Source: Akkermansiaceae bacterium
Lineage (GTDB): Bacteria > Verrucomicrobiota > Verrucomicrobiia > Verrucomicrobiales > DEV007
Reading direction: 5' to 3'
NCBI GenBank assembly: GCA_024233005.1
Contig: JACKQE010000003.1
Coordinates: 219,434 to 283,433, forward strand
Length of the DNA: 64,000 nucleotides
Each line of letters begins with the position of its first letter. Within the stretch, counting starts at the first letter, position 1. Made by a program: the position numbers and the translations under genes. This document shows, piece after piece, positions 12,307-33,327 of this stretch. The notes beneath the pieces were generated by a model, which searched no databases, was not told the DNA's origin, and worked only from the letters and a program-made list of their open reading frames with translations.

Positions 12307-12327
12307 GTCGTGGGAGGGCGCAGTGCA

Positions 12328-14343: not shown

Positions 14344-14428
14344 TCAGACCCCAAATGCAAGACCTCCGCCACCCGTCACTGGGTGAAAACCGTCCTCGTC
14401 ACCCGTGTGGAATTCGGGACGGGCCGCT

Positions 14429-15255: not shown

Positions 15256-17793
15256 ATGAAACGGATCCCCCCTCACCCTTTTGGCAGCATTTTTGTGGTT
15301 CAGGCTCTGGCAGTCCTCGGGGCCGGCACCGGATGGACACAGGAAACCGACTTCAATCGGGACATCCGTCCCATTCTTGCGGAGAACTGCTTTTACTGCC
15401 ACGGGCAGGATGGGAACAAGCGCAAAGCGGAACTCCGCCTCGACGTGCGGGAGGAAGCGATGAAAAAAGGGGCGATCGCCCCGGGAGACCTTGCCGCCAG
15501 CGGTTTGGTGGAAAGGATCCGGTCCGGCGATCCCAAGGAAATGATGCCTCCCCCCGATTCAAACCGCCGCCTCACCGCCGCTCAAAAAGAGCTGCTGACG
15601 CGCTGGATTGGAGCCGGAGCGAAGTACGCGGAGCACTGGGCGTTTGTCGCCCCCGTCCGACCGGTCGAACCCGGCGTGCGCGACCAGGCATGGCCCCGCA
15701 ACGCGATCGACCGCTTTGTCCTCGCCAAACTCGAGGCCGCTGGTATCACTCCCTCACCGGAGGCGGACCGAGCCACCCTGATCAAGCGCCTGTCCATCGA
15801 CCTCATCGGCCTGCCCCCTCAACCCTCAGAAATTGAAGCGTTCCTCAAGGACCAGGATCCCCGGGCCTATGAGAACCTGGTCGATCGCCTCCTCAACAGC
15901 CGCCACTATGGTGAACGCATGGCCCTGCCCTGGTTGGATGCGGCACGCTACGCCGACAGCAACGGCTTCCAGCAGGATGGCGACACCTGGCAGTGGCTCT
16001 GGCGCGACTGGGTCGTCCGGTCCATGAATGCGGACTTGCCGTTCGACCAGTTCACCCTCTGGCAACTCGCGGGCGATCTGTTGCCGGAGGCGACCACGGA
16101 TCAGAAAATCGCCAGCGGCTTCAACCGGAACCATTTGCTCAATGGCGAGGGGGGTGCCATTCCCGAAGAGCAGCGTTTCGTCAACCTTTTCGACCGCATC
16201 GACACCACCGCGACGACCTGGCTGGGGCTGACGATGGCCTGCGCCCAGTGCCATGATCACAAATACGATCCCATCACCCAGCGTGATTATTACAGCCTGC
16301 TTGACGCGTTCAACCGGGTGCCGGAATCCGGGACTCCGCAGCGCCAATCGGCTCGCATCCGGGTGGCCGCGCCTTTCCTGGAGCTGCCCACAGAGGAGAA
16401 TACGGCCCGGATCAGCGAGATGGAATCGAGAATCCGGGACACCGAAGCCAAGGCCAAGCCAGACATCGAAGCCGCCTTTGCCGAATGGCGGACGACAGTC
16501 CACCGCGGCACCAAAGACCTGCCAGAAAACCTGGTCTCGCTGCTGGGCAAAGCCGAGTCCGAACGCGGACCCGCCGGGGAGAAGGCGCTCGAGACCGGTC
16601 TGAGGAAGCATTTTGACGACAAGGTGCGTCCGGAACTGGGAAAGAAGATTCCGGCCGTGCAACAGATTGCGCAGCTGAAGAAAGATCTGGCGGACTACCG
16701 GGGCGACCAGATTCCCCGGCCCATGGTGATGAGCGATGATCGTCCACGGGAAACCAGCATTCTGGACCGCGGACAGTATCTCAGTCCACTGCAGCCGGTT
16801 GCGTTCGCCACCCCGGCCTTTCTGCCTCCGCTTCCCAAGGACGCCCCGCAGAACCGGCTTGGGCTGGCGCGGTGGCTGGTATCCCCCAGCCATCCGTTGA
16901 CCGCCAGAGTTCAGGTCAACCGAATGTGGCAGCACTTCTTCGGCCTCGGCATCGTCAAAACGTCGGAGGATTTCGGCGTGCAGGGCGAGTATCCGGTCCA
17001 CATGGCGCTGCTGGACTGGCTGGCGGTGGAGTTCCGCGAACACGGGTGGAGCCAGAAGCACCTCCACCGACTCATCGTCACCAGCTCCACCTACCGCCAA
17101 TCGAGCCGGGTAACGCCGCAGTTAAGGGAACTCGACCGCGAAAACCGCCTCTATGCCAGAGCGGGCCGTTTCCGAATGCCGTCCCTGATCCTGCGCGATT
17201 GGGCGCTGGGATCTTCCGGACTGCTGGTGCCAGAGATCGGGGGTCCCCCGGTTTACCCCTACCAACCGGATAATGTCTGGGAAGCGCTCGCCATCACCAA
17301 GGAACGCGATTTCACCTACCCGGCATCCACCGGAGCGGATCTCTACCGCCGCAGTCTCTACACCTTCTGGCGACGCACGGTCGGTCCAACCAACATGTTC
17401 GACGCTTCGGACCGCCAATCCTGCCGCGTCCGGCAGGGCAGCACCAGCACTCCCCTGCACGCGTTGACCACCTTGAATGATCCCACCTGGGTCGAAGCGG
17501 CCCGCGTCCTCGCGGAGCGATGCAGCAAAACCTCCGGCTCGACCGACGACCGGCTCGCCGAGGCCTTTGGTCGCGTGCTCTGCCGAAAGCCGGGCCCAAG
17601 CGAGCGGGACCGGTTGCGGCAGGCCCACGCCCGCCAGGCAGCCATTTACCGGAAGGATCCGGAAGCGGCCAAAGCACTGCTGGGAGTGGGGGCGAGCCCC
17701 CGTGACGCTTCCCTGGACCCCATTGAACAAGCCGCTTTCACCGCCGTCTGCCTCGGCATTTTCAATCTCGACGAAGCCCTCACCCGCGAATGA
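15256..17793 (+). CDS. PSCyt1/DUF1549/DUF1553 family secreted protein
   Basis: Start set at ATG 15256 ([24 protein letters not shown], signal-like). CFYCH at 15388..15402, [14 protein letters not shown]1549-like [19 protein letters not shown], and the DUF1553 tail. Confidence 0.8.
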
Positions 17794-19238
17794 ACTTTCC
17801 CGAAATCCTCCGTCACAACGCCGCCCTGGTCACCCGCCGACAACTGTTCGGCCGCACCGCCGGTGGTGTCGGCATGGCCGCATTGGCATCGCTGCTGCAG
17901 CAGGAGGGGGCCGTGGCCGCCCCAACTGGCACCACGGGACCACACCACCGGCCCAAGGCCAAGCGGGTGGTGATGCTCTGGCAGGGAGGAGCCCCCTCGC
18001 ACGTTGATCTCTTCGACTCCAAACCGATGCTGCAGAAAATGGCAGGAAAGGACATTCCGGATTCCGTGCGCGGCACGACCCGTCTGTCCACCATGTCGGC
18101 CAGCTACAAAAAGTGGCCCTGTGTGCCAGCGATCAAACCCTTCAAACCTTACGGGAGCGCCGGCACGATGATGAGCGAAATGCTGCCCAACATTGGAGCG
18201 TTGTCCGATGACCTCTGCCTGGTCCGCAGCATGCACACCGAGGCGGTGAACCATGCTCCCGGGGTGACCTTTTTCATGACCGGCGCCCAGGTTCCCGGGC
18301 GACCGAGCATGGGCGCCTGGCTCTCCTATGGTCTGGGCAGCGAGAGTGACAATCTGCCGGCATTCGTCGTGATGACCTCGAGCGACAAGGGGAGAACCTG
18401 CGGTCAGCTCTTTTTTGACTATTACTGGGGCAGCGGGTTTCTGCCCAGCCGCTACCAGGGCGTCCGCTTCCGCAACACCGGAGAGCCCGTTCCCTACCTG
18501 TCGAATCCTCCCGGGATCAGCCCAGCAGGACGGCGAGCCCTGCTTGATGACATCGCGGCGATGAATGCGGCACACCTGGCCGACTATGGGGATCCTGAAA
18601 TCGACACCCGGATCACCCAGTATGAGATGGCCTTCCGGATGCAGACCAGCGTGCCCGACTTGGTGGATTTTGCCGGGGAATCCCCGAAAACGATCGAGCG
18701 CTATGGACCGGACGCGTTGACCAAAGGAAGTTTCGCCAACAACTGCCTGGTAGCCCGACGGTTGCTGGAACGCGGAGTGCGTTTCGTGCAGTTGATGCAC
18801 TCGGGCTGGGACCAACACAGCAATCTGTTCACTCAGTTGGAAGTGCAATGCCGTGACACCGACGCCCCGGCCGCCGCCCTGGTGCAGGACCTGAAAGAGA
18901 GAGGTCTGCTCGAAGACACCCTGGTCGTCTGGGGTTGCGAATTTGGAAGGACTCCGTTCGGTCAGGGTGACCCGGCGAGTCCCAAAGGGCGTGACCATTT
19001 TGGCCGGGCTTACAGTTGGTGGCTGGCCGGTGGAGGCATCGCTCCCGGCACCGTCCATGGCGCCACTGACGACTTCGGTTGGAACATCACCGAAAACCCG
19101 GTCCATGTCCACGACATGCAGGCAACCATCCTGCATCTCTGCGGCATGGACCACGAACGCCTCACCTTCCGCTATCAAGGACGCCAGTACCGTCTCACCG
19201 ACGTTCATGGGGAGGTCGTGCGCGGCATTCTTTCCTGA
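17790..19238 (+). CDS. DUF1501 domain protein
   Basis: ATGA overlap with the upstream gene. Tat-like TRRQLFGRTAGGVGMAAL, LWQGGAPSHVDLFDSKP, GRDHFGRAYSWWLAGGGIAPG...TDDFG...VHDMQATILHLCGMD. Confidence 0.8.
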   Translation: MNFPEILRHNAALVTRRQLFGRTAGGVGMAALASLLQQEGAVAAPTGTTGPHHRPKAKRVVMLWQGGAPSHVDLFDSKPMLQKMAGKDIPDSVRGTTRLSTMSASYKKWPCVPAIKPFKPYGSAGTMMSEMLPNIGALSDDLCLVRSMHTEAVNHAPGVTFFMTGAQVPGRPSMGAWLSYGLGSESDNLPAFVVMTSSDKGRTCGQLFFDYYWGSGFLPSRYQGVRFRNTGEPVPYLSNPPGISPAGRRALLDDIAAMNAAHLADYGDPEIDTRITQYEMAFRMQTSVPDLVDFAGESPKTIERYGPDALTKGSFANNCLVARRLLERGVRFVQLMHSGWDQHSNLFTQLEVQCRDTDAPAAALVQDLKERGLLEDTLVVWGCEFGRTPFGQGDPASPKGRDHFGRAYSWWLAGGGIAPGTVHGATDDFGWNITENPVHVHDMQATILHLCGMDHERLTFRYQGRQYRLTDVHGEVVRGILS

Positions 19239-19407
19239 GATTGCCGCTTTTTCCGGGAACTTGGGATGTCCTCCGGTCAGCGGAACCTGGCGCCCACAGG
19301 GAGGAATCCGCCCGCCGATTGCGGTCCGGAACTAAACTCCAAGAACTACTTCCCTCGCAGTTACGCCATTGCCAATGGGACCCCCGATCCTATACATTCC
19401 CCGCCTC

Positions 19408-22104
19408 ATGGCATCCCCCTCTCCCTCGAATGGCCTCCGGCGCGTGGTCAGCGCATCGATTCCCACCCTGGCGGCCACGATCCGGTTGGGGGTTCTTCTC
19501 GTGGGGATTCAGGGCCACGCTGCCGCGGGCGGAGCGGAACCCGGTCCACTCCCGGCCTTCCTTCAAACCCACTGCGTGGAATGCCATGACGCCGATAGCC
19601 ACAAGGGCAATCTCGATCTTACCACCCTGCAGCCAAAATTTGACGGCGCGGACGCCTTCGCCCGCTGGGTCAAGATTCATGACCGGATCGTGTCGGGGGA
19701 AATGCCTCCGCGAAAGAAACCCCGCCCCGCCGCCGGAGAACTCGCCGCCGTCACCCAATGGCTCTCCGGATCTCTGAATGAAGCCGAGCAGGCCCATCTT
19801 GATGCCGCCACCCGCACGGGAGTGCGGAGGCTGACCCGGTCGGAATACGAAAACACCGTGCGTGATCTGTTCGACCTGCCGGGAATCGCTCTTCTGAGCG
19901 GACTCCCTGCCGACGGATCGGCGCATGGTTTTGACAAAAACAGCGATGCGCTGGACATCTCGCACGTCAATCTTTCCAAGTATCTGGAGGCGGCCGACAA
20001 GGTTCTCGACATGGCCATTGCGACCCAACCCACCGCGCCGGAGAAAACCACGGTGCGTCTCTCACTGGCAGGCAACTATGAGCCAAACATCATGTTGATG
20101 CAGGGCGATGCGGTGCTGCTCCGCGACAAGCAGCACGATCCCCTCTTCCCTCCGGCCGGCACATACGCCCACATCAACCAGGGAGCCCACGAGCAGCTCG
20201 GCATTTTCAAGCGGATGAGCAGTGTGGGGGTGTTCCGGCATGAGGACGAGTCGTGGAATGCCTACTTTCGGAAGTTCTCCGCCCTTTATCCGGGCCGCTA
20301 CCGTGTCCGCGCCTCTTTCTGGAGCATGACCTGGGACAAAGGCAAAGTCCTTCCCTCGCGGGGCGTCGAGGCGGCCCGGCTCTCTGTGGTGCAATTCAAC
20401 GAAAACGGCCGTGGCGGACAACACCCGAGTTACGTGCTGGGTTATTTCGACGCGCCTTCCATCGAGTCCCGGACGCATGAATTGGATGTCTGGTTCAACC
20501 AGAAAGAAACGATCGGATTCAACACCGCCTCCCTGGCTCCAGTGGTGCTTTACCGCGTGGGAACCTGGGGCCAGGTGGACCGCACGATGGGCTTCACCGG
20601 TCCCTGCATCGTCAATGACTGGCTCGACATCGAAGGCCCGTTTCACGACGTGTGGCCGCCTCGCAGTCACCAGCTGCTCTTCGGCGAACTCCCCCTCATC
20701 GAATTCAAGCCGGCCGACCATCCGGATGTCCGTCCGCCCGTCCGCAAGCCCCTCAAACAGGAGATTGTCGGTTGCGACAACAAGCCCGAACCTGTCCAGG
20801 GAATCTGGACCGTGGGGAGCCACGAGCCGCTGGCTGACGCGGACCGCCTGCTGGCGGCATTCCTGCCCAAAGCCTTCCGCCGTCCGGTGGGAGAGGATGT
20901 GCGCCGGTCCTATGTCGGTCTCGTCTCATCGCGGCTCACCGCGGGGGATGCCTTTGAAACGGCCATGCGCCAGGCCTACCGCGCGGCGCTCTGCTCGCCG
21001 GACTTCCTCTACCACGTCGAACCTCCCGGTCCCTTGGACGAGTTCGCCCTCGCGTCCCGGCTTTCTTATTTCCTGTCCAACTCGAAACCGGATGAGGTCC
21101 TCTCCGGACTGGCGACCGCTGGGAAATTACGGGAGGCGACCGTGCTCCGGGAACAGGTCGGACGACTCTTGGCCGATCCGAAATCCCAGCGGTTTATCGA
21201 GGATTTCCTCGCGCAATGGCTCAAGCTGGGAGCCATCGGCGCGAACGATCCAGACAAGAAACTCTACCCCGAATTCAGCCCCTACCTTCAAGACTCCATG
21301 GTTGCTGAAACCCGCGCCTACTTCCGCGAACTGATCGACCGGGACCTCGACGCGGGCCATCTGGTGAAGTCGGACTTCGCCATGCTCAATGAAAAACTCG
21401 CCACGCACTATGGCATTCCCGGGGTGAGCGGACCGGCCATCCGCCGGGTCGCCCTGCCTCCAGATTCCCCCCGCGGCGGGTTCCTGACCCAGGCCGCGAT
21501 ACTGAAGGTCACCGCCAACGGCACGACCACGTCACCGGTGCCGCGCGGCGCGTTTGTTCTCGCCAGACTGCTGGGACAGCCTCCCGACCCGCCTCCGTCC
21601 AGCGTTCCGGCGGTGGAACCGGATGTCCAGGGGGCCACCACCATCCGCGAACAGCTCGCGAAGCACCGCTCCGACGCGGTGTGTTCCTCCTGCCACGCCA
21701 AAATAGATCCCCCCGGATTTGCCTTGGAAAGCTTCGATGTGATCGGGGGCTGGCGCGACCGCTACCGCTCGATCGGGCAAGGTGATCCGGCGCCACGTGG
21801 CAGCATTGATCCCCGGATCGGCATCGGTTTCAAGCTGGGCCCCCCGGTTGATCCCGGCGGCGCACTTCCCGACGGTCGCCAATTTCATGATGTGATCGAG
21901 TTGAAAGCGTTGCTGGCCGGGGACAAAAGCCAACTCCTCCACAACCTTGCCCGCCAGCTCACCGTCTACGCCACCGGGAGAGACATCGCTTTCCGTGACC
22001 GCAAGGCCCTCGACACCATCGTCGCCAGCACTGAGAAGCAAGGAGGCGGGATCCGCAGCCTGATACAGGAAATCGTCCTCAGCCCCCTGTTCCAAACCCG
22101 ATGA
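19408..22104 (+). CDS. DUF1587/DUF1592/DUF1595/DUF1588/DUF1585 (PSCyt3 + PSD2-5) family secreted protein, copy 1
   Basis: Start at ATG 19408 (signal-like). CVECH at 19573..19587, a second CxxCH (CSSCHAKIDPPGFALESFD) at 21682..21696, and the C-terminal IQEIVLSPLFQTR. Strongly similar to the 24270..26903 product. Confidence 0.8.
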   Translation: MASPSPSNGLRRVVSASIPTLAATIRLGVLLVGIQGHAAAGGAEPGPLPAFLQTHCVECHDADSHKGNLDLTTLQPKFDGADAFARWVKIHDRIVSGEMPPRKKPRPAAGELAAVTQWLSGSLNEAEQAHLDAATRTGVRRLTRSEYENTVRDLFDLPGIALLSGLPADGSAHGFDKNSDALDISHVNLSKYLEAADKVLDMAIATQPTAPEKTTVRLSLAGNYEPNIMLMQGDAVLLRDKQHDPLFPPAGTYAHINQGAHEQLGIFKRMSSVGVFRHEDESWNAYFRKFSALYPGRYRVRASFWSMTWDKGKVLPSRGVEAARLSVVQFNENGRGGQHPSYVLGYFDAPSIESRTHELDVWFNQKETIGFNTASLAPVVLYRVGTWGQVDRTMGFTGPCIVNDWLDIEGPFHDVWPPRSHQLLFGELPLIEFKPADHPDVRPPVRKPLKQEIVGCDNKPEPVQGIWTVGSHEPLADADRLLAAFLPKAFRRPVGEDVRRSYVGLVSSRLTAGDAFETAMRQAYRAALCSPDFLYHVEPPGPLDEFALASRLSYFLSNSKPDEVLSGLATAGKLREATVLREQVGRLLADPKSQRFIEDFLAQWLKLGAIGANDPDKKLYPEFSPYLQDSMVAETRAYFRELIDRDLDAGHLVKSDFAMLNEKLATHYGIPGVSGPAIRRVALPPDSPRGGFLTQAAILKVTANGTTTSPVPRGAFVLARLLGQPPDPPPSSVPAVEPDVQGATTIREQLAKHRSDAVCSSCHAKIDPPGFALESFDVIGGWRDRYRSIGQGDPAPRGSIDPRIGIGFKLGPPVDPGGALPDGRQFHDVIELKALLAGDKSQLLHNLARQLTVYATGRDIAFRDRKALDTIVASTEKQGGGIRSLIQEIVLSPLFQTR

Positions 22105-22664
22105 GAACCACGATCGCCCTCTGCCTGTGCTGGGTGCTCTGCGCCGCCCTCCCAGCCCCCGAACTCCTGGCCGGGGAGCAGACCGCCACATTCCGCCTCA
22201 TCGGCCTGAGCCACCCCGAGCGGGAAGAGGATTTCCACCAGGTGATGCAGTCGCTGCCGGACCTGAAACTCGAGCGATGGGATGCCGCGAAGGCTGAAGT
22301 CACCCTGCGCTATGACACTGCCAGGCTGTTCCCCACCTCCAAGCCGGATCAGGTCTTCCCGCCGGAGAAAATTCTTGAACACCTCGACAAGCTCATCGGC
22401 CAGGCATCCAACCGCACCTTCAGCCTGACCGCCCCCCTTTCGGTGCAGGACAGCGAATTGACCAAGGTGGAGATCCCCTGCGGGTTCCTCGACTGCAAAG
22501 GCTGCCGCTATGCGGTCTACTTGGCGGTGGCGAAAACCGAGGGCGTCGCCCGGGCCTCCGTCAGCTCTGAAACAGGAGTTCTCACGGCTTGGATCGAGAC
22601 CGGCAAAACCAACCGTGAAACCCTGATCGAAGCCCTCAAAAAAGCCCGGGTGGAACTCCCCTGA
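22101..22664 (+). CDS. Secreted tandem HMA-like (ferredoxin-fold) protein, second domain with CxxC, copy 1
   Basis: ATGA overlap with the upstream gene and a signal peptide (MRTTIALCLCWVLCAALPA). The C-terminal half, KVEIPCGFLDCKGCRYAVYLAVAKTEGVARASVSSETGVLTAWIE...TLIEALKKARVEL, follows the heavy-metal-associated domain pattern (G.xCxxC...GV....V.......v). CKGC is at 22494..22505. The N-terminal half has the same spacing but no Cys pair. Confidence 0.6.
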   Translation: MRTTIALCLCWVLCAALPAPELLAGEQTATFRLIGLSHPEREEDFHQVMQSLPDLKLERWDAAKAEVTLRYDTARLFPTSKPDQVFPPEKILEHLDKLIGQASNRTFSLTAPLSVQDSELTKVEIPCGFLDCKGCRYAVYLAVAKTEGVARASVSSETGVLTAWIETGKTNRETLIEALKKARVELP

Positions 22665-22815
22665 AAACCCTCGCACCATCATCCCCCTCCCTCCGGGCTG
22701 GAAAGATGGTGTTCCTTCCGTTGGATTCCGGCTCAGCCAGGAGCGTATCCGCCCTCGCAGGCCTCGCAGTTGCGCCATTGCAAAAGTCGGCCGCAAGCCT
22801 GTAGATTCTCCCCAC

Positions 22816-24273
22816 ATGAAAGCCCCTCTCTGCTCACGCGCCGCCGCTTGGTCCCGGCGTGAATTTCTGAATCGCACCGGCATGGGGTTGGGGACATTCG
22901 GCCTGGCCTCGGTCCTGCAGCAGGCCGGTCTCGGAGCCGCCGAATCCTTCGTCTCCCCCTTGTCCAGCCGGTCGCCGCACTTTGCGCCCAAAGCGAAGCG
23001 GATCATCCAAATTTTCTGCGAAGGAGGCCCGTCCCAGGTGGACACCTTCGATCCGAAGCCGATGCTTTCCAAATACCATGGCAAACCGGTTGATGAGGTG
23101 ATGAAGGACTTCACCAAGACCGCCGGTGAAGTTGCCTCCGGGATGGGACGGCTCAGCGGCAAACTGCAGCAATCCGGATTCACGTTTTCCAAACACGGCC
23201 AATGCGGCGCCGAGATCAGCGAGCTGTTCCCCAAACTGGCCGGTCACGCCGACGATCTCTGCATTGTCCGGTCCATGCACACCAAAAGCAGCGTCCACGA
23301 ACCAGCCCAGCTCATGACCAACACGGGAGAACTGACCGTGGTCCGGCCCAGTGTCGGCTCCTGGATCGTCTATGGTCTCGGCACGGAAAACCAGAATCTG
23401 CCGGCGTTCGTCGCCCTTCACCCCAACGGAACGACCTCATCCGGAGACAAGAACTGGTCGAATGCCTTCCTTCCATCCTGGACACGAGGCACGGGGATCG
23501 CGACGAAGAATCCCTCGGTCGAGAAACTCATCGAAAACCTTCGCAGCGGCAGCACCAGCATCCGTGAACAGCGACGCCAACTCGACCTCTTGGCGGAAAT
23601 GAATGCCGATTTCTTGGAGGATCACCCGGGAGACGCCTATCTTGAGGGCCGCGTCCTCTCGTTCGAGACCGCCTTCCGGATGCAGGTCGAGGCGACCGAT
23701 GCTTTCGACTTGCAACGGGAACCGCTCCCGGTCCGGGAGCTATACGGCGACACCGAACAGGGACGGCAAATGCTGCTGGCCCGGCGGCTGGTGGAACGCG
23801 GCGTGCGTTTTGTCCAGGTCTGGCACACCGGCTGGGACACCCACGACGAGAACGACAGCCGTCATAAAACCCTCTGCGAGGCAGCCGATCAACCGGTCGC
23901 GGCCTTGCTCCAGGACCTCAAAAACCGCGACATGCTCAAGGACACCCTTGTGATCTGGGGCGGTGAGTTCGGCCGCACGCCCACCAGTGACAACAATGAC
24001 GTGGCCAAGAAGAAAGGCATCGGTCGTGATCACAACGCCGGTGGCTATTCTTTGTGGATGTCGGGCGGCGGCATCAAGGGTGGTCTGACTCATGGGTCCA
24101 CGGACGACTTTGGTGCCGTGGCTCAGGAAAACCCCGTCGATGTTCATGACTTCCACGCTACCGTGATGAATCTCATGGGTTTCGATCACGAGCGGCTCAC
24201 CTACCGTTACGCGGGTCGTGATTTCCGGCTGACAGACGTCTATGGCAAGGTCGTGAAGGATCTTCTGGCATGA
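22816..24273 (+). CDS. DUF1501 domain protein
   Basis: Tat-like SRREFLNRTGMGLGTFGLASVL, FCEGGPSQVDTFDPKP, GRDHNAGGYSLWMSGGGIKGG..STDDFG...VHDFHATVMNLMGFD. Its stop overlaps the next start (ATGA at 24270). Confidence 0.8.
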   Translation: MKAPLCSRAAAWSRREFLNRTGMGLGTFGLASVLQQAGLGAAESFVSPLSSRSPHFAPKAKRIIQIFCEGGPSQVDTFDPKPMLSKYHGKPVDEVMKDFTKTAGEVASGMGRLSGKLQQSGFTFSKHGQCGAEISELFPKLAGHADDLCIVRSMHTKSSVHEPAQLMTNTGELTVVRPSVGSWIVYGLGTENQNLPAFVALHPNGTTSSGDKNWSNAFLPSWTRGTGIATKNPSVEKLIENLRSGSTSIREQRRQLDLLAEMNADFLEDHPGDAYLEGRVLSFETAFRMQVEATDAFDLQREPLPVRELYGDTEQGRQMLLARRLVERGVRFVQVWHTGWDTHDENDSRHKTLCEAADQPVAALLQDLKNRDMLKDTLVIWGGEFGRTPTSDNNDVAKKKGIGRDHNAGGYSLWMSGGGIKGGLTHGSTDDFGAVAQENPVDVHDFHATVMNLMGFDHERLTYRYAGRDFRLTDVYGKVVKDLLA

Positions 24274-26903
24274 AGCCCACCGCCCGCTGGACGCAAATGT
24301 TGGCGTGCCTCCCGATGGTGGTGTTCCACGCCGCGCCGGCCACTGCCGAGCCCGGACCACTGCCGGCATTTCTGGAGACCCATTGTCTGGAATGCCATGA
24401 CTCCGATAGTCGCAAAGGAAATCTCGATCTCACGGCACTGCGGTCCGATTTCGCCAACGCGGAAACCTTTGCCCGATGGGTCAAGATCCATGACCGGATC
24501 ACTTCAGGAGAAATGCCTCCGAAAAAAAAGGCCCGCCCCGAGGTCGGAGAAAGCGCCGCGTTCATCGAGTGGCTCTCGGGATCGCTCATCAAGGCCGAAA
24601 AGGCTCGCGTCGCTGGCGCAGGCCGGACGGGGGTGCGCCGGCTAACCCGGACGGAATACGAGAACACCCTGCGCGATCTCTTCGACATGCCCGGTCTCGC
24701 CCTGCAAAACCTGCTTCCGGCGGACGGTTCGGCACACGGCTTTGACAAGAACAGTGACGCGCTGGACATCTCCCACGTCCATCTCGCGAAATACCTTGAG
24801 GCCGCCGATCTCACGCTCGATCTCGCCATCGCCACCCAACCGAAGGCTCCCACGGTGCAAAAGCGCCGCATCTCCCTGATGAACCGGGGAGGCTTTGTCG
24901 CCCACATTGTCATGAACGGCGATGGGGTCCTCCTGCGGGACATGAAGCCCGACCCCGACTTTCCCGCCTCTGGCGAGCACAAGCACATCGACCAGGGAGC
25001 GCATGAGCAGATCGGTTCCTTTGAAACCGGGAGCACCGTGGGCCTGTTCCGCCATGAGGACGAGTCGGTCAGCCCCTATTTCATGGAGCACGTCACCATT
25101 TACCCCGGCCACTACCGGGTCCGCACCTCGCTCTGGGCCTTCCAGTGGGACAAAGGTCAAGTCCTTCCCGCGCGCGGCACCGAGGCCGCACGGCTCTCGG
25201 TCGTGCAGCTCACCGGCGACGGCCGGGGCGGCCAACATCCCAGTTATGTCCTCGGTTACTATGATGCGCCTTCGCTCAGTCCCACCGAGCACGAGGTGAA
25301 GGTGTGGTTGAACCACAACGAGCTCATCGGATTCAACGCCGCCTCGCTCGCGCCCGTGGCAAATTACAACCGCAAGGGACGCGCCATGGCCTTCACCGGG
25401 CCCGGCATTGCCGTGGATTGGCTGGAAATCGAGGGACCACTGCATGAAGAATGGCCCCCCCGTTCACATCGGCTGCTGTTTGGAGAACTGCCCCTGAAAG
25501 AGTTCCCATCCGGAGAGCAGGAAGGGCAGCGCCCCCCCGTGAGGAAGAAGGTCAGGCAGCTGGGCGCCGGCCTGAACCGCCCCGATCCCGGAGCCGGGCT
25601 TTGGAGCGTGCAGAGTGCCCAACCCCTGGTCGACGCCGAGCGCTTGCTCGCCGGGTTCCTTCCCAAAGCCTTCCGGCGTCCCGTGTCCCCGGAAGTGCGC
25701 CAGTCGTATCTGGAGATCGTCAAGCAACGCCTGAAAGCTGGCGACTGCATTGAAACCGCTCTCCGCGAGGCCTACCGGGCGGCTCTCTGCTCCCCGGACT
25801 TTTTGTACCAGGTCGAGCCCGCGGACGGACTCGACGACTACGCCCTGGCCGCCCGCCTCTCCTATTTTCTGTGGAATTCGGCGCCCGATGATGAACTTCT
25901 CGCCCTCGCTGCACGAAACACCCTGCACGATCCCGGAACTCTTCGTTCCCAGACCGAGCGTTTGCTGGGAGATGTGAAATCGCAACGGTTCATCGATGAC
26001 TTTCTCGGCCAGTGGCTCAAGCTCCGTCAGATTGCGGCAAACGATCCCGACAAGAAGCTCTACCCAGAATTCAGTCCCTATTTGCAGGATAGCATGGTCG
26101 CCGAAACCCGCGCCTATTTCCGCGAACTCATTGAGAAAGACCTCGACGCCACCCACCTCGTCAGATCCAGATTCGCCATGCTGAATCAAAAGCTCGCCAC
26201 CCATTATGGCATCGACGGCGTGATCGGCCCCAAGATCCGCCGCGTCGATTTGCCGCCGGGATGCCCCCGCGGAGGATTCCTCACCCAGGCCTCGATCCTG
26301 AAAGTCACTGCCAACGGCACCACCACCTCGCCCGTGGTGCGCGGAGCCTTCGTCCTGGACCGCATCCTTGGAAAGCCACCCGAGCCTCCTCCCTCGAGTG
26401 TCCCCGCCGTCGAGCCGGACGTGCGCGGCACCACCACCATCCGCGAGCAGCTCGACAAACATCGCAATGACGCCGCCTGCGCCACCTGCCATGCAAAGAT
26501 CGATCCTCCCGGTTTCGCCCTCGAAAGCTTCGATGTCATCGGAGGTCAGCGCTCGCGTTACCGCAGCATCGGGGAAGGCTTGGGCGATCCCGCCCCCCGG
26601 GGGACCATCGACCCTTTCATTGGCATCAGCTTCAAACTCGGCCCGCCGGTCGACTCCGCCGGGGTCATGCCTGGGGGGAGATCGTTCAGCGATATCCGTG
26701 ACATGCAGGACATCCTCGCGGAACACCCGGAAGTTCTGCTTCACACCCTCGCCCGTCAGTTCCTGATTTACAGCACCGGTCGTGACATCGCGTTTTCGGA
26801 CCGAGCCGCCCTCAACGACCTCCTCACCAGAACCGGTCCGAAAGGCGGCGTGCGGTCGCTTCTGCACCAGCTCATCCAAAGTCCACTGTTCCAAACTCGA
26901 TGA
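24270..26903 (+). CDS. DUF1587/DUF1592/DUF1595/DUF1588/DUF1585 family secreted protein, copy 2
   Basis: CLECH at 24384..24398, CATCHAKIDPPGFALESFD at 26478..26492, and the C-terminal HQLIQSPLFQTR. Long identical runs shared with copy 1 include EPGPLPAFL.THC.ECHD, FARWVKIHDRI.SGEMPP and LPADGSAHGFDKNSDALDISHV. Confidence 0.8.
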   Translation: MKPTARWTQMLACLPMVVFHAAPATAEPGPLPAFLETHCLECHDSDSRKGNLDLTALRSDFANAETFARWVKIHDRITSGEMPPKKKARPEVGESAAFIEWLSGSLIKAEKARVAGAGRTGVRRLTRTEYENTLRDLFDMPGLALQNLLPADGSAHGFDKNSDALDISHVHLAKYLEAADLTLDLAIATQPKAPTVQKRRISLMNRGGFVAHIVMNGDGVLLRDMKPDPDFPASGEHKHIDQGAHEQIGSFETGSTVGLFRHEDESVSPYFMEHVTIYPGHYRVRTSLWAFQWDKGQVLPARGTEAARLSVVQLTGDGRGGQHPSYVLGYYDAPSLSPTEHEVKVWLNHNELIGFNAASLAPVANYNRKGRAMAFTGPGIAVDWLEIEGPLHEEWPPRSHRLLFGELPLKEFPSGEQEGQRPPVRKKVRQLGAGLNRPDPGAGLWSVQSAQPLVDAERLLAGFLPKAFRRPVSPEVRQSYLEIVKQRLKAGDCIETALREAYRAALCSPDFLYQVEPADGLDDYALAARLSYFLWNSAPDDELLALAARNTLHDPGTLRSQTERLLGDVKSQRFIDDFLGQWLKLRQIAANDPDKKLYPEFSPYLQDSMVAETRAYFRELIEKDLDATHLVRSRFAMLNQKLATHYGIDGVIGPKIRRVDLPPGCPRGGFLTQASILKVTANGTTTSPVVRGAFVLDRILGKPPEPPPSSVPAVEPDVRGTTTIREQLDKHRNDAACATCHAKIDPPGFALESFDVIGGQRSRYRSIGEGLGDPAPRGTIDPFIGISFKLGPPVDSAGVMPGGRSFSDIRDMQDILAEHPEVLLHTLARQFLIYSTGRDIAFSDRAALNDLLTRTGPKGGVRSLLHQLIQSPLFQTR

Positions 26904-27487
26904 CCGTTTTCCAACTGCCACAGATCCATCATCCGGCCTGCCTTGGAATGCTCGCGTTCCTTGGCGTGGTTCTGTTCGTGCCCGCAGGGCCGGAACTGGC
27001 CGCGGCCGAGTCCATCGTGCAGTACCGCGTCAACGGGTTGTTCCAGCCTGACCGCCAAGAAGCGCTCACCACCGCCGCACAAGCCCTTGAGGGGTGCCAC
27101 CTCACCGGGGTGGATTACGACACCGCCCTCGCATCCTTCGCCTACGACCCCGACCACCAACTCTTCAAGAATGCCAAGCCCGAACAGGTGCTCCAGCGGA
27201 TCAATGATCAGATCAGAAGGTTGACCAACGGCTGCTTCACGCTTTCCCTGCCCGGCAAACTCCCACCGGAAAAACTTGTCGAGATTCGGTTCGAGATCGA
27301 AGGTCTCGATTGCCTCGGTTGCTCGTTTGGGGCCTATCGTGCGGTCGCCGGCATTGATGGAGTGGAGCGCGCCACCGCCAGTTTCCATGAAGGCCGGCTC
27401 ACCGCCTGGATCGATCCCGCCAAAACGAACCGTGAAGCGCTGGCCGCCGCCCTGACTAAAAAAGAGATCACGATCCTCCACCCCTGA
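26900..27487 (+). CDS. Secreted tandem HMA-like protein with CxxC, copy 2
   Basis: ATGA overlap with the upstream gene and a hydrophobic N-terminus. EIRFEIEGLDCLGCSFGAYRAVAGIDGVERATASFHEGRLTAWIDPAKTNREALAAAL, with CLGC at 27311..27322. Shares LDC.GC, LTAWI and KTNRE.L with copy 1. An alternative start is at 26948. Confidence 0.6.
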   Translation: MTVFQLPQIHHPACLGMLAFLGVVLFVPAGPELAAAESIVQYRVNGLFQPDRQEALTTAAQALEGCHLTGVDYDTALASFAYDPDHQLFKNAKPEQVLQRINDQIRRLTNGCFTLSLPGKLPPEKLVEIRFEIEGLDCLGCSFGAYRAVAGIDGVERATASFHEGRLTAWIDPAKTNREALAAALTKKEITILHP

Positions 27488-27492
27488 CTGCC

Positions 27493-28752
27493 ATGACCAA
27501 GAACATTGTCCCCCGCCCGGCCTCGCTCCCCCGCCGCACTTTCCTGCGGGGAGCGGGGATCACCCTGAGCCTGCCGTTTCTGGAGGCCATGTGCCCGGCG
27601 TTTTCTTCCGCCGCCGAGTCCTCCATCCCACGCCGCATGGTCTGCATCCAGACCAACATGGGAATCCTGCCGCAGTTTTTCTTTCCGGAGAACGCGGGAC
27701 GCGACTACACTGCGAGCGTCTACTTGGAGCGACTCAAGACCCACCGCGACCAGATCACGGTCTTCTCGGGCGTCAGCCATCCCGTTGTCGATGGCGGACA
27801 CGCGGCGCAGAAATGCTTTCTGACAGGCACGCCGCACCCGGCCCGGGGCGGCTTTCGCAACGGCATTTCCCTGGACCAGTTCGCCGCGGAAGAAATCGGC
27901 AACCAAACCCGCTATCCGTCTCTCGTGCTCGCGGTCACGAATGAAAATGCCACGATGAGTTTCACCCGCAGCGGGGCTTCGATCCCTTCGGAACAGAGCC
28001 CGAAAAAATTGTTTGAACGTCTTTTCATCCAGGGCAACGCCAAGGAAGTTGAGGCGAATGTGGAAGCTCTGCAGCGGGGCCGCAGCTTGATGGACTTCGT
28101 GGGGGAACAGTCGAAGCGCCTCAGCCGGACCCTCTCCAAGAGTGACCAGTCCCGACTCGACCAGTACTTCACCGCGGTGCGGGATCTCGAACAGCGACTT
28201 CACAGCGCGGAGGAGTGGGAATACAAGCCCAAGCCCGCCGTCACGGCCAAAGCCCCCGAGGAAATCACCGACGCGCTGGAGTTCGTGCGCCGCACCGGTC
28301 AAACCTTCGATGTGATGAAACTTGCTCTTGAGACCGACTCCACACGGGTGATTTCCCTCTTCATTGACACCACCGTCATCCACAATATCACCCACCATGG
28401 CAACCGCCCCGAGGTTCTCGCCGAACTGCGCGGGCACGAGGAACGCCAGTTTGATGCCCTGAACGGTTTCCTGACGGCTCTGGCGGAGGCAAAAGAGCAG
28501 GGCGACACGTTGCTTGATCGCACCCAGGTCTACTACGGCACCTGCATGGGAAGCGCCAACTCCCACAGCAATGTGAACCTGCCGGCACTGCTGGCGGGTG
28601 GCGGATTCAAACACGGCCAACATCTCGCCTTCGACAAGGACCACAACCACCCTCTGACGAACCTTTACGTCTCCATGCTGCAACGGCTGGGCATCGATAC
28701 CGGGGAGTTTTCCACCGGCAAGACGACCATCAAGGGACTGGAGATGGCCTGA
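27493..28752 (+). CDS. DUF1552 domain protein (Tat signal)
   Basis: The N-terminal PRRTFLRGAGITLSLPFLEAM is the hallmark DUF1552 start. About 420 aa. Located 5 nt after the HMA-like gene. Confidence 0.75.
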   Translation: MTKNIVPRPASLPRRTFLRGAGITLSLPFLEAMCPAFSSAAESSIPRRMVCIQTNMGILPQFFFPENAGRDYTASVYLERLKTHRDQITVFSGVSHPVVDGGHAAQKCFLTGTPHPARGGFRNGISLDQFAAEEIGNQTRYPSLVLAVTNENATMSFTRSGASIPSEQSPKKLFERLFIQGNAKEVEANVEALQRGRSLMDFVGEQSKRLSRTLSKSDQSRLDQYFTAVRDLEQRLHSAEEWEYKPKPAVTAKAPEEITDALEFVRRTGQTFDVMKLALETDSTRVISLFIDTTVIHNITHHGNRPEVLAELRGHEERQFDALNGFLTALAEAKEQGDTLLDRTQVYYGTCMGSANSHSNVNLPALLAGGGFKHGQHLAFDKDHNHPLTNLYVSMLQRLGIDTGEFSTGKTTIKGLEMA

Positions 28753-28780
28753 CCACTCCTCCGGCGCATCCAGTTATTCG

Positions 28781-31700
28781 TTGCACCATCCAACCATGAA
28801 ATTGATCCTCTCCGCAATGCCGCAAGCATTGTTCTACCCAGTCGTGTTCCTGCTTCCGACTGCCGCGGTGAAATCCGACGAGGGAAGCGCTTTCTTCGAA
28901 TCGAAAATCCGTCCGATTCTCATTGAAAGCTGCTACGACTGCCACAGTGCCGAGGGGAAGCACAAGGGGGGATTGTCTCTCGACACGAAGGAAGGCGTGC
29001 TCAAAGGTGGTGAGACCGGCGCGGCGGTGGTGCCCGGCGACACGGCGAAAAGTTTGCTGCTGACGGCGGTGCGCCATACCGATCCCGACCTTGCGATGCC
29101 GCCGAAGAAAAAACTCAGCGATGCCCAGATCGCCGATCTGGAACGCTGGGTGGTCATGGGAGCCCCTGACCCCCGCTCCGGCGCCAAGCCAGCGACGAAA
29201 CTGGAGGAACATTTCGCCACCGCCAAAACGCACTGGTCCTTCCAGAAAGTCATCCAACCGGCAGTGCCCGCCGTGCCCGGAGCCACGCACCCGATCGATG
29301 CCTTCATCCGTGAAAAACTCGCGTCCGCCAAGCTCTCGCCTTCTCCGAAAGCGGATGCCCGCACCCTGATCCGTCGCGTCTCTTTCGATCTCACCGGGTT
29401 GCCGCCGTCACCGGAGGAAGTGGAGTCCTTTGCCAAAGCGCACGCCCAAAACCCCGACAGGGCCTTCCAGGATCTTGTCGAAACGCTTCTCGCCTCTCCG
29501 CATTATGGGGAACGCTGGGGACGCCACTGGCTCGACGTGGCCCGGTATGCCGACAACATGGGCTCGATCTACAACGGGGACGACAGCTACCCGTATGCCT
29601 TCACCTACCGGGATTATGTGGTCCGCTCCTTCAACGAGGACAAACCCTACGATCTTTTCCTGCGCGAACAACTCGCCGCCGATCTGCTCCCCGGTGCCGA
29701 TCCCCGGGACAACTCACGGCTTGCCGCCCTGGGCTTTCTGAATCTGGGAAGACGCTATGACCGCAAGGTGGACGACAACAACATTGACGACCGCATCGAC
29801 CTCATTTCCCGGGGCCTGCTCGGTCTGACCGCAGGTTGCGCCCGCTGCCACGACCACAAGCTGGAGCCCATTCCCACGAAGGACTATTACGCGCTTTACG
29901 GCATCTTCAAAAGCTGTGCCGAGCCGGCCATCTATCCGGTGCTGCTCCCCCAGCCCGTCAGCCCCGAAAGCGCGGCTTACGATGCTGAAAACCGGAAGGC
30001 GCGCACGGCCTACAGCACCGCGAGCATCGCGGCCGCCAACGCTGCCTCCGCGCAGGCACGAAGCCGGGTGGGCGACTATCTCATGACGGCGGAGCAGTCC
30101 GGTTGGAAAACCCACTATGATAACAAGGGCATCATGGATGTGATCACCCAGCGAAAGCTTCAGGGTGACCTGCACAACGCGATGACCCGCGCCCGAAAAT
30201 CCTGGATCGAAGCGCATCCCGAAGTGTTCGGTCCCTTTCTGGAGTTCATCACCGGCAATCCGTTGGAACCCAAGCCGGTCCTCCACCCTCTGGTGGCCAA
30301 AGCTTTCGCCACGCCCGCAACCACCCTGGAGGAGTTTGCGGCGCGCTACAACGGGCTCTTTGCGGATATCGACGGAGACTGGCGAAAACTCGCCGAAGGC
30401 CCCCTGCAGCAAGCGGCCAAGTTGCAGGAAGCGGACCTCGATCCTCCGGTGGACAAGCTCGCCACCCAGTCCATCGCCCGAATGGACGCAGTGGAGAACA
30501 CCCTGCCGTTGCCCGATGCGGACCGCGAGGCTCTGCGTCAAATTCTCATCGCCAAAGACTCGCCGGTGAAGATCGCCCCGGAACGGTACTCCGTGGCGCG
30601 GCTGTTTCCGGAACCGGAAAAGAAGGAAATGGACAAGCTCGCCAAACCGGTCACGGAGTTGACGAAACATCCCGGCGCGCCGGTGAGGGTCATGGCGCTG
30701 GAGGATACCAAACCGTATGATGCCAGGATTTTTCTGCGGGGAGATCCCAAAACACCGGGAGATCCCGCTCCGCGCGCCTTTTTCACCCTCCTGACACCGG
30801 AAGGAGCCGAGCCTTTCCCAAAGGACCGCAGCGGTCGGTTGGAACTCGCCAACGCCCTGGTGGACCCGATGAATCCTCTCACCGCCCGGGTCATCGTGAA
30901 CCGCGTCTGGCAGTGGCACTTCGGCGAGGGGTTGGTCCGGAGCACCAGTGACTTCGGTCTTCGGGGGACGCCTCCGACCCACCCCGCGCTTCTCGACTGG
31001 CTTGCCTCCCGGTTCGTGGAGAGCGGTTGGAGTTTTAAAACGCTCCACCGGCTCATGCTTTCCAGTGAGACCTGGCAACAGGACAGCCGTCCCCGCGCAG
31101 ACCTTGCCAAAACGGATCCCGACAATGCCCTCTGGGGACGCTCTCTGGCGAGGCCCCTTGAGTTCGAGCCCTTCCGGGACGCCCTGCTCAGTGTGGCCGG
31201 GGTGCTCGAAGAACACCTCGAGGGCAAGCCGACCGATTTGCTCAAGGAAGCATCATTACGGCGAACGATTTATGCAACGGTGGACCGAAAAACCCTGCCG
31301 GGACTTTTCCGCAGTTTCGATTTCCCCGATCCCAACTTCACCGCCGCCGGCCGCGGACGCACCGCCCTGACCCCGCAGGCCCTCTACCTGCTGAACAGCG
31401 CCACGGTGGTCGACCGGGCGCGTGACCTGGCCCGGCAGGTGCGCCCCGATTCTCCGTCTGGAAATGCCGGAGGCATCCGCGAGCTTTACCGCAAAGTCTT
31501 CCAGAGGCTTCCCGGAGAGAAAGAACTGGCCCGGGCGGAAGCTTTTGTGTCCCAGCATCCCGAGCATGACGTCGTCATGCCCGAAGTAACCGACTGGACC
31601 TACGGGTTTGGTGAATTCGACGCCACAACCCATACCATCGCCCATTTCACCCCGTTGCAGTTCGCCGGGGATGTCGTCAAAGGAGGCAAGGTCGGCGACC

Positions 31701-32185
31701 AGGACACCACCGGTTTGGAGTTCAATGCCCAGGGAGGTCAGCCCGCAGCGGGGATGGCCGCGGCGGTGCGTCGCTGGACCGCTCCCCGGGACGGCACGCT
31801 CACCATCTATGCAGAACTGCTCCACCAGAGCAAGGAAGGGGACGGCGTCGTTTGCCGGATTCTCTCCAGCCGGGACGGACTGCTTGGAGAGTGGACCGCC
31901 ATCAATCAATCCATCCTGACTACCCTGGATGATGTGAAGGTGAAGAAAGGGGACACGCTGGATTTTGCCGCCCTCTGCCGGAACGATCCCAAATCCGACA
32001 CCTACCAATGGGCGCCGACCATCACCATGACCACGGCGGAAATGCCCGGGATGAGCGGCATGGCGATGCGGTGGGATGCCCGCTCGAATTTCCTCAATCC
32101 GGCCAAAATGCCCGAGCCCTTGGGTGCCTGGGAAGAGTTGGCGCAGGTGCTGCTGCTTTCCAACGAATTCATCTTCGTGGAGTGA
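28781..32185 (+). CDS. PSCyt1/DUF1549/DUF1553 family secreted protein with about 190-aa C-terminal insertion
   Basis: CYDCH at 28931..28945, [29 protein letters not shown], and the terminal VLLLSNEFIFVE. An alternative start is ATG 28796 (MKLILSA...). An unassigned region encoded by about 31563..32140 precedes the terminal helix. Confidence 0.8.
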   Translation: MHHPTMKLILSAMPQALFYPVVFLLPTAAVKSDEGSAFFESKIRPILIESCYDCHSAEGKHKGGLSLDTKEGVLKGGETGAAVVPGDTAKSLLLTAVRHTDPDLAMPPKKKLSDAQIADLERWVVMGAPDPRSGAKPATKLEEHFATAKTHWSFQKVIQPAVPAVPGATHPIDAFIREKLASAKLSPSPKADARTLIRRVSFDLTGLPPSPEEVESFAKAHAQNPDRAFQDLVETLLASPHYGERWGRHWLDVARYADNMGSIYNGDDSYPYAFTYRDYVVRSFNEDKPYDLFLREQLAADLLPGADPRDNSRLAALGFLNLGRRYDRKVDDNNIDDRIDLISRGLLGLTAGCARCHDHKLEPIPTKDYYALYGIFKSCAEPAIYPVLLPQPVSPESAAYDAENRKARTAYSTASIAAANAASAQARSRVGDYLMTAEQSGWKTHYDNKGIMDVITQRKLQGDLHNAMTRARKSWIEAHPEVFGPFLEFITGNPLEPKPVLHPLVAKAFATPATTLEEFAARYNGLFADIDGDWRKLAEGPLQQAAKLQEADLDPPVDKLATQSIARMDAVENTLPLPDADREALRQILIAKDSPVKIAPERYSVARLFPEPEKKEMDKLAKPVTELTKHPGAPVRVMALEDTKPYDARIFLRGDPKTPGDPAPRAFFTLLTPEGAEPFPKDRSGRLELANALVDPMNPLTARVIVNRVWQWHFGEGLVRSTSDFGLRGTPPTHPALLDWLASRFVESGWSFKTLHRLMLSSETWQQDSRPRADLAKTDPDNALWGRSLARPLEFEPFRDALLSVAGVLEEHLEGKPTDLLKEASLRRTIYATVDRKTLPGLFRSFDFPDPNFTAAGRGRTALTPQALYLLNSATVVDRARDLARQVRPDSPSGNAGGIRELYRKVFQRLPGEKELARAEAFVSQHPEHDVVMPEVTDWTYGFGEFDATTHTIAHFTPLQFAGDVVKGGKVGDQDTTGLEFNAQGGQPAAGMAAAVRRWTAPRDGTLTIYAELLHQSKEGDGVVCRILSSRDGLLGEWTAINQSILTTLDDVKVKKGDTLDFAALCRNDPKSDTYQWAPTITMTTAEMPGMSGMAMRWDARSNFLNPAKMPEPLGAWEELAQVLLLSNEFIFVE

Positions 32186-32223
32186 AACGCTGCCCGGGGC
32201 GAGCCGGCAGCCGGTCTGGCAGG

Positions 32224-33258: not shown

Positions 33259-33327
33259 CCTAGAGGAATCCTCGGAACGGGGGAATCACCCAATCACGCC
33301 CCCCGCCTGAACCCTGTTCCAAACGCC

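Follow-up and report, generated by a model that had tools for sequence, protein, structure and literature searches.

Planctomycete-specific cytochrome (PSCyt) and PSD proteins, together with their DUF1501 and DUF1552 partners, are among the most expanded families of the Planctomycetes and Verrucomicrobia. The domains are said to have been first defined in Rhodopirellula baltica, by Studholme and colleagues in 2004. Two classic types of module are distinguished: (i) a PSCyt1/PSCyt2/PSD1 protein encoded beside a DUF1501 protein, and (ii) a PSCyt3 protein encoded beside a DUF1552 protein. DUF1501–PSCyt2/PSD1 modules have been described by Kamneva et al. (2012; PMC3542564), the most complex arrangement there being a different, four-gene cluster, and He et al. 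(2017, mSphere, PMC5615132) reported that PSCyt3 genes usually have members of an unknown gene family as neighbors. In the literature that we searched, the function of the PSCyt/PSD proteins and of their DUF1501/DUF1552 partners is described as unknown. Here, we examine a locus that resembles the second type and carries an additional gene. It lies in a stretch of 64,000 nucleotides from an Akkermansiaceae bacterium (contig JACKQE010000003.1 of assembly GCA_024233005.1, positions 219,434 to 283,433), which is called the window below. Positions 19408 to 28752 of the window hold two adjacent gene sets, A and B, each with a gene for a large PSCyt3/DUF1592 protein followed by a gene for a small secreted protein with two heavy-metal-associated (HMA) domains.

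There is good support for the view that two paralogous copies of one conserved periplasmic module, long diverged from each other, make up this region, and that the module is specific to the Planctomycetes–Verrucomicrobia–Chlamydiae (PVC) bacteria. In set A, D1592_A (positions 19408–22104; start given as 19369/19408 in the list of open reading frames, ORFs) encodes a Sec-exported di-heme protein of 898 amino acids and is followed by small_A (22101–22664; 187 amino acids). Next stands DUF1501_2 (22816–24273), which encodes a protein of 485 amino acids exported by twin-arginine translocation (Tat), and whose membership of the module is doubtful. In set B, D1592_B (24270–26903; also a Sec-exported di-heme protein, 877 amino acids) is followed by small_B (26900–27487; 195 amino acids) and by D1552 (27493–28752), which encodes a Tat-exported DUF1552/HXXSHH protein of 419 amino acids. 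All six genes belong to a run of + strand genes that extends from 15184 to 32185, and their boundaries agree with the ORF list. Stop and start codons overlap in the sequence ATGA at 22101, 24270, and 26900; the spacer between small_B and D1552 is 5 nucleotides long, and that between small_A and DUF1501_2 is 151 nucleotides long. The ORFs, the Pfam assignments, and the overlaps bear out a preliminary description of this DNA, according to which two adjacent sets share the same large–small order. Its further claim that the same three-gene module occurs twice holds for the large and small genes but not for the third ones, which belong to DUF1501 in set A and to DUF1552 in set B. The same gene order, with protein identities of ~92–99%, is found in a contig of a metagenome-assembled genome (MAG; JADZAX010000496, locus L006), and for D1592_B there is a 100% identical NCBI protein (P0185) from a Verrucomicrobiales MAG.

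D1592_A and D1592_B have the same architecture, PSCyt1–PSD3–PSD5–PSD4–PSCyt3–PSD2, and all six domains score above the Pfam gathering threshold (PSD3 is synonymous with DUF1587, PSD5 with DUF1595, PSD4 with DUF1592, PSCyt3 with DUF1588, and PSD2 with DUF1585). In both proteins, a Sec-type signal peptide is followed by the motif THC(V/L)ECHD (THCVECHD in D1592_A; THCLECHD is also seen). The predicted heme motifs of D1592_B are C39xxC42H43, accompanied by a conserved M82, and C737xxC740H741; these two CxxCH motifs, in PSCyt1 and PSCyt3, are kept in at least 93% of 113 relatives and occur throughout the DUF1592 family, generic members included. The two proteins are 67% identical over 866 residues aligned by BLASTP, and the alignment contains all five runs of shared residues quoted in the preliminary description. 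The latter had also estimated by eye an identity of about three quarters over the first ~170 residues; the high similarity was confirmed, but the computed values, ~0.60–0.70 per 50-residue block, are slightly lower.

Both proteins belong to a conserved subfamily, which we delimited at ~56% identity or more, as opposed to the generic DUF1592 proteins, at 49% or less. Identity within the subfamily ranges from ~56 to 75% across two phyla, compared with 41–49% to generic members. Seven residues of D1592_B (D218, H239, H245, E263, E305, H323, and M373) are specific to the subfamily, being at least 90–95% conserved within it and at most ~10–15% in generic DUF1592 proteins. All seven fall in a middle region of ~260 residues, for which a Pfam search of either large protein at E ≤ 10 returned no match. 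Compared with the PSCyt3 and DUF1552 pair known from Planctomycetes and Verrucomicrobia, the module is thus alike in the architecture of its large protein, in its Tat-exported DUF1552 neighbor, and in its taxa, but its subfamily is unusually conserved, and it adds both these His/Met/Glu residues and a tandem-HMA gene that is sometimes fused to the large one. With the PSCyt1/PSCyt2/PSD1 and DUF1501 module it shares the same logic, that is, a large Sec-exported protein with cytochrome c motifs combined with a Tat-exported, enzyme-like protein. However, its large protein has PSD3–5 and PSCyt3 rather than PSCyt2 and PSD1, and an HMA partner has not been reported for the DUF1501 system.

The small gene is closely linked to this subfamily. 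When one genome per species was scanned, it was found in 43 species, which belonged to Verrucomicrobiota or Planctomycetota wherever a phylum was given in the record title, and among them the isolates Gemmata algarum JC673 (L043) and Gemmataceae bacterium CJuql4. It lay nearly always directly downstream of a DUF1592 gene whose product scored 1100–1300 bits against the window proteins, with a DUF1552 gene upstream or downstream; the search for the middle gene beside DUF1592 genes of PVC genomes, which the preliminary description had proposed, was therefore successful. An unbiased metagenome scan seeded with D1592_B yielded 80 loci, which were analyzed with hidden Markov models and counted from the resulting table. 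The small gene was present at 32 of the 36 informative subfamily loci and at none of the 24 informative generic ones (Fisher exact test, p = 5.7e-13). The order D1552–D1592–small is the commonest, and D1592–small–D1552, D1592–D1552–small, and D1552–small–D1592 also occur, such that the trio stays together while its order changes. At seven loci, D1592 and the small gene are fused in a single ORF of 1088–1162 amino acids, with the small part at the C-terminus, devoid of a signal peptide and retaining both of its motifs, GLDCxxC included.

Conservation, fusions, and the contingency test exclude the possibility that the small ORF is spurious or adjacent by chance. The trio is a self-contained conserved unit, real and widespread in PVC bacteria: when 1050 flanking ORFs from 74 loci were clustered in search of a fourth conserved neighbor, no family was present in more than eight loci, and the flanking families that do recur resemble local synteny or generic families. 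Compared with proteins of other genera, DUF1552 is the most conserved member (84–87% identity), followed by D1592 (70–75%) and the small protein (50–64%). A three-component version of the DUF1592/DUF1552 pair, as suggested in the preliminary description, is thus real and recurs across these bacteria. Its supposed novelty is consistent with full-text literature searches on the DUF and PSCyt names, which returned no description of it and no paper with an HMA or chaperone-like third component. In several of the fused ORFs (L013, L028, L042, L068, L069, and L087), the linker between the two parts carries a Met-rich motif (HRMMM, STMM, HRMIM, then LP.V.SPV), which was read from the C-terminal ~250 amino acids of loci that may be close kin, so that its conservation is possibly just inherited. 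The motif calls to mind the Met motifs by which periplasmic proteins bind Cu(I).

The small proteins were expected from the preliminary description to be secreted, tandem-HMA-like, and much more diverged than the large ones, and all of this was verified. Small_A and small_B are 36% identical (E = 1e-31), as against 67% for the large proteins, and both have Sec-type signal peptides. Their scores with the Pfam HMA model (PF00403), 18.6 and 20.7 bits, are below the gathering cut-off of 24.8, and a family profile of 25 sequences matches the tandem HMA domains of ATP7B with E = 3.7e-17, as well as CopA, ZiaA, ZntA, and MerP. In an AlphaFold2 model based on 63 sequences (mean predicted local distance difference test score, pLDDT, 88.8), the protein folds into two beta-alpha-beta-beta-alpha-beta units. 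In Foldseek, this model matches best the N-terminal domain pairs of CopA and ATP7B, and MerP and CopZ match a single domain; the probability is 1.0 for all four, and the template modeling (TM) score for MerP is 0.84. The middle gene is therefore a real, conserved gene for a secreted tandem-HMA protein.

The two domains of this protein are not equivalent. The first domain of small_B is degenerate, with GLFQPDR in place of GMTCxxC, and its residues G46 and R52 are invariant among the 63 sequences. CxxC occurs only in the second domain, where it aligns with the GMTCxxC metal site of known HMA proteins, and where D137-C138-x-x-C141 and Y146 are invariant in the same set. Similarly, small_A has a degenerate N-terminal HMA-like domain and a C-terminal HMA domain with LDCKGC. 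The small protein resembles MerP, CopZ/Atx1, and the domains of CopA, ATP7B, and ZntA in its beta-alpha-beta-beta-alpha-beta fold and in a CxxC located in the first loop/helix; it shares its two-unit repeat with CopA and ATP7B and its periplasmic location with MerP. In contrast to these metal handlers, its first domain is without both cysteines, its motif is L-D-C-x-x-C rather than M-T-C-x-x-C, and its partner is a heme protein, not a P-type ATPase or MerT. The Asp before the first Cys presumably recalls Zn-type HMA domains such as ZntA.

Neither Pfam nor NCBIfam has a model dedicated to the small family. The MerP model (TIGR02052) gives scores of 22.1 and 28.6 against an NCBIfam cut-off of 92.55, the CopZ models (NF033795 and NF047957) give 15–22 against cut-offs of 85–91, and the UxxU_metal_bind model gives 49.4 against a cut-off of 95. 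The small protein would work like MerP and CopZ, yet it is not a member of either equivalog family; the annotation pipeline of the Joint Genome Institute (JGI) names its relatives copper chaperone CopZ or hypothetical protein. A word-indexed database contained 64 full-length homologue clusters, and an exhaustive profile search gave 136 clusters (at 50% identity) with E ≤ 1e-30, among which is one fused representative of 1100 amino acids.

The preliminary description interpreted the two sets as a tandem duplication. In its simple, recent form, one three-gene operon would have been copied in place and then diverged, the small gene most rapidly, with the third gene as a variable partner. The sets are indeed adjacent and co-oriented, they have the same large–small order and the same ATGA coupling, and their large proteins are 67% identical. 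However, the number of synonymous substitutions per site (dS) between A and B is ~1.45, a saturated value, which makes the ratio of nonsynonymous (dN) to synonymous substitutions unusable for dating and leaves only dN as informative (0.26 between the large proteins and 0.67 between the small proteins). Moreover, both sets have closer orthologues in other genera than in each other. D1592_A has 72–75% identity to its counterparts in MAGs of Verrucomicrobiaceae and Prosthecobacter, compared with 67% to D1592_B, and more than 120 database clusters are 70–74% identical to D1592_B and thereby closer to it than D1592_A is. Small_A has 52–61% identity to proteins of loci L037, L077, and L011, compared with 36% to small_B, which in turn has 62–64% identity to proteins of MAGs labelled Chthoniobacter, Chthoniobacteraceae, Verrucomicrobiaceae, and Prosthecobacter. 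Within the subfamily, the two large proteins are thus no closer to each other than to other members, although they remain closer than either is to the DUF1592 family at large.

The neighbor-joining trees built for the large protein, the small protein, and DUF1552 agree with one another: A and B fall into separate clades, each of which is common to several genera. As these distance trees carry no support values, their exact branching is provisional; the identity figures agree with them independently. Small_A, for example, falls in clade A together with L037, L011a, and L077. In a Prosthecobacter MAG (L011), a clade-A trio is followed by a clade-B trio, in the same order as in the window and with DUF1552 in both copies, and two tandem sets occur likewise in a Chthoniobacterales MAG (L022). 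That the third genes of the window come from different Pfam families is a further point against copying of a whole operon in place. Taken together, the saturated dS, the closer orthologues elsewhere, and the congruent trees indicate an ancient duplication, after which both copies were kept and the three genes co-evolved; a recent origin is very improbable. One locus of this collection has an unexpected label: a 3.9-kb contig (CAMCIN010000336.1, L008) of a MAG labelled Akkermansia muciniphila carries a D1592–small–D1552 trio of Chthoniobacter type, and this contig looks mis-binned or mis-labelled.

The third proteins of the two sets both carry the Tat signals that the preliminary description had assigned to them, PRRTFLRGAG in D1552 and SRREFL in DUF1501_2. 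D1552 matches the DUF1552/HXXSHH family (PF07586) with 237.6 bits, against a cut-off of 30, and its motif reads H297-N-I-T-H301-H302, with Thr replacing Ser and with the three histidines kept in at least 92% of relatives. DUF1501_2 matches DUF1501 (PF07394) with 478 bits, although its gene is not next to a PSCyt2/PSD1 gene, the usual neighbor of that family. The two families are homologous over ~383 columns, nearly their full length (hhalign probability 97.8–99.2%, P = 8.5e-13), a result that is convincing only with diverse alignments from the retrieved loci, shallow ones giving a probability of 23%. This homology means that the two classic partner families of the PSCyt proteins form one superfamily, which unifies both module types and gives a real basis to the term "DUF1501/DUF1552 partner" used in the preliminary description. 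In its C-terminal part, the DUF1501 profile also gives weak matches to sulfatases (best E = 0.0043), which hints at the sulfatase/alkaline-phosphatase superfamily; the DUF1552 profile gives no such matches.

Set B has its DUF1552 neighbor, and set A is flanked by DUF1501 genes on both sides, without DUF1552. DUF1501_2 might therefore be seen as a homologous replacement that took over the missing DUF1552 role together with D1592_A and small_A, in which case the region would hold two complete systems with different catalytic subunits. The full-length homology and the Tat signals of both families would agree with this, as would the position of DUF1501_2, which matches the place taken by DUF1552 where the order is of B type and also in copy A of L011. 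In addition, the arrangement is retained in L006, a 94%-identical relative, and a metagenome locus (L049) has DUF1501 directly after a subfamily D1592 gene. On the other hand, DUF1501_2 is separated from small_A by 151 nucleotides, whereas its stop codon overlaps the start of D1592_B in an ATGA. Its nearest relatives outside L006 (45–51% identity) adjoin PSCyt2 genes or generic pairs, none of them lying beside a subfamily module, and no DUF1501 clade particular to clade-A modules emerged when one was sought. Similarly, at four or more other loci with ample flanks (L002, L020, L025, and L080), D1592 and the small gene stand without an adjacent DUF1552 or DUF1501 gene.

An obvious partner for DUF1501_2 exists nearby. 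Directly downstream of D1552, on the + strand, PSCyt2_2 (28781–32185) encodes a PSCyt1/PSCyt2/PSD1 protein of 1134 amino acids (Pfam) and has no adjacent DUF1501; the next gene, on the − strand, encodes a DUF3500 protein. There are three PSCyt2/PSD1 and three DUF1501 genes in the window, and of the former all but PSCyt2_2 have a partner beside them. We therefore think that DUF1501_2 belongs with PSCyt2_2, and the 151-nucleotide gap and the location of its relatives argue against its membership of the module. DUF1501_2 is thus most likely the displaced partner of a neighboring PSCyt2 gene, PSCyt2_2 being the candidate, and its recruitment into set A is unlikely. We think that copy B is complete and that copy A is a two-gene version, with the cytochrome and its small partner only. 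Other combinations of these families occur in the metagenome loci. L049 (positions 3777–12912) has, all co-oriented, a PSCyt2/PSD1 gene, DUF1552, a subfamily DUF1592 gene, DUF1501, and a gene for a 2-oxoglutarate and Fe(II)-dependent (2OG-Fe(II)) oxygenase, and so combines both module types without an HMA-like gene. L051 (1841–8257), from a MAG, has DUF1552 (463 amino acids), an unannotated gene of 143 amino acids, DUF1592, the HMA-like gene, and a second DUF1552.

On balance, we consider it probable that the region contains two copies of a conserved periplasmic module of a cytochrome, a tandem-HMA protein, and a DUF1552 protein, with a role in metal handling. The small protein is most likely its dedicated periplasmic metal-handling subunit, for which we infer metal binding. 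Beyond this, a mechanism can be proposed, which as a whole is tentative and, in our judgment, falls somewhat short of probable. The three proteins would form a periplasmic complex, in which the degenerate first HMA domain may be the part of the small protein that docks on its cytochrome partner. The metal ion bound by the D-C-x-x-C of the second domain would be a soft one, Cu(I) or a divalent ion such as Zn(II), and it could be passed to, or held at, a site formed by the subfamily-specific His/His/His/Met/Glu residues in the middle region of the cytochrome, which their conservation makes a candidate acceptor site. The two hemes might then carry electrons between the metal center, the DUF1552 enzyme, and the respiratory chain.

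The Met-rich linkers of the fused forms, together with a precedent from another bacterium, would point to copper. Cbp2D of Cellvibrio japonicus is a multi-domain protein with a DUF1587/PSD3 domain, and its c-type cytochrome domain can reduce copper lytic polysaccharide monooxygenases (Branch et al., 2021; PMC8981238). It is similar to the large proteins of the window in its secreted or periplasmic c-type cytochrome domain, its PSD3/DUF1587 domain, and its link to a copper enzyme. However, it shares only this one domain, has no DUF1552 or HMA partner, and comes from another taxon, such that it may serve as an analogy for electron delivery and not as a case of functional homology. A more specific proposal would be that the conserved DUF1592 subfamily is a periplasmic oxidoreductase with heme plus metal, probably copper, in which a mononuclear center of His/His/His/Met type, situated in the middle domain, is loaded by the dedicated tandem-HMA chaperone, and of which DUF1552 is the catalytic or substrate-binding partner. 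We regard this as possible though rather doubtful. If true, it would be the first assignment of a cofactor and mechanism to any planctomycete-specific cytochrome module, and the small protein would represent a new class of periplasmic HMA metallochaperone, serving a cytochrome instead of a transporter.

Several observations weigh against metal handling by such a complex, or against parts of the mechanism. Around 10% of the subfamily loci have no adjacent small gene and yet keep the His/Met residues, which means that these genomes either can do without the partner or encode it at another place. The putative acceptor site is drawn from conservation, and a sequence search of the PDB with D1592_B gave no matches. 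For the DUF1552 protein, the family profile and a single sequence gave only chance-level matches in the PDB, and an AlphaFold2 model of D1552 built from 24 sequences, all at least 72% identical, was unusable (mean pLDDT 47.6). In addition, the hints about the metal are split, the Asp-Cys pair presumably being reminiscent of Zn and the Met-rich linkers suggesting Cu(I). Finally, the Tat export of D1552 suggests that this protein gains a cofactor of its own in the cytoplasm, which makes it an improbable client for a chaperone of the periplasm.

The metal could also be the substrate of the system rather than its cofactor. In that case, the HMA protein would capture a toxic or redox-active ion in the periplasm and present it to the di-heme protein to be oxidized or reduced, the whole acting in detoxification or as a metal redox system. 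MerP is the classical periplasmic HMA protein and binds Hg(II); it is also a strong single-domain structural match of the small protein (TM score 0.84), which is itself a periplasmic HMA protein with CxxC. Furthermore, the best NCBIfam matches are UxxU/CxxC metal-binding (seleno)protein (E = 3.7e-13), MerTP, and MerP, and heme groups could give or take electrons. Set against this, the NCBIfam scores are far under the family cut-offs (28.6 versus 92.55 for MerP), and among the genes that recur in the neighborhoods there are none of the mer, cop, cus, or czc type and none for metal-responsive regulators or efflux pumps. D1552 and D1592 are very highly conserved in PVC bacteria from freshwater, soil, and the sea, a pattern closer to that of a housekeeping enzyme than to that of an accessory resistance trait. 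A role of the metal as substrate is accordingly quite unlikely in our view.

A third explanation dispenses with the metal altogether, and we hold it to be improbable. The CxxC would cycle between dithiol and disulfide, or the small protein would assist heme attachment or the folding of the cytochrome. The motif does lie at the N-terminus of a helix, as redox-active motifs do, the periplasm is the site of both disulfide chemistry and heme c attachment, and the fusions tie the small protein to the C-terminus of the cytochrome. However, the fold is HMA/ferredoxin-like and not thioredoxin-like, and the Asp that precedes the first Cys and the Tyr five residues past the second, both invariant, are better suited to a metal-coordination loop. 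Moreover, generic DUF1592 proteins have the same two heme motifs and do without the partner.

The partner gene provides the first specific, testable clue to the role of the PSCyt3/DUF1552 genes in PVC genomes, and it overturns nothing of what was described before. It makes several questions concrete: which metal the partner binds, whether it docks on the cytochrome, and whether the subfamily-specific His and Met residues form a site. Experiments are feasible in cultured carriers of the module, such as Gemmata algarum JC673.

The two copies stand in a larger setting of related genes. Window positions 6654–32185 form, on the + strand, a 25-kb island of planctomycete-specific cytochrome modules, with three PSCyt1/PSCyt2/PSD1 genes (at 6654, 15184, and 28781), three DUF1501 genes (at 9812, 17790, and 22816), two DUF1592 genes, one DUF1552 gene, and two HMA-like genes. 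Three PSCyt2/PSD1–DUF1501 pairs, or components of such pairs, thus flank the copies of the trio. Besides PSCyt2_2, these are a pair at 6654–11242 (+ strand, Pfam) and a classic PSCyt1/PSCyt2/PSD1 and DUF1501 pair directly upstream of D1592_A, composed of PSCyt2_1 (15184–17793) and DUF1501_1 (17790–19238), both on the + strand and assigned by Pfam, with stop and start overlapping at 17790–17793. Between these two modules lie genes for a GFO/IDH/MocA-type oxidoreductase (11314–12306, + strand) and a glycoside hydrolase of family GH16 (12328–13629, − strand), neighbors that agree with the carbohydrate-related surroundings reported for PSCyt genes.

A search of the whole window against Rfam gave no match, and a promoter and terminator scan of 13600–33400 was uninformative, its counts being equal to the shuffled expectation. 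Just upstream of PSCyt2_1, positions 13630–15183 (~1.5 kb) contain no ORF longer than 162 amino acids on either strand and no Rfam match, and this segment may be a regulatory region for the long run of + strand genes. On the other side of the island, the − strand carries, from 32224 to 38788, the DUF3500 gene (32224–33258) and then a polysaccharide biosynthesis and export cluster, with genes for an NAD-dependent epimerase/dehydratase, a Wzx-like Polysacc_synt protein, and two Poly_export/SLBB (Wza-like) proteins.

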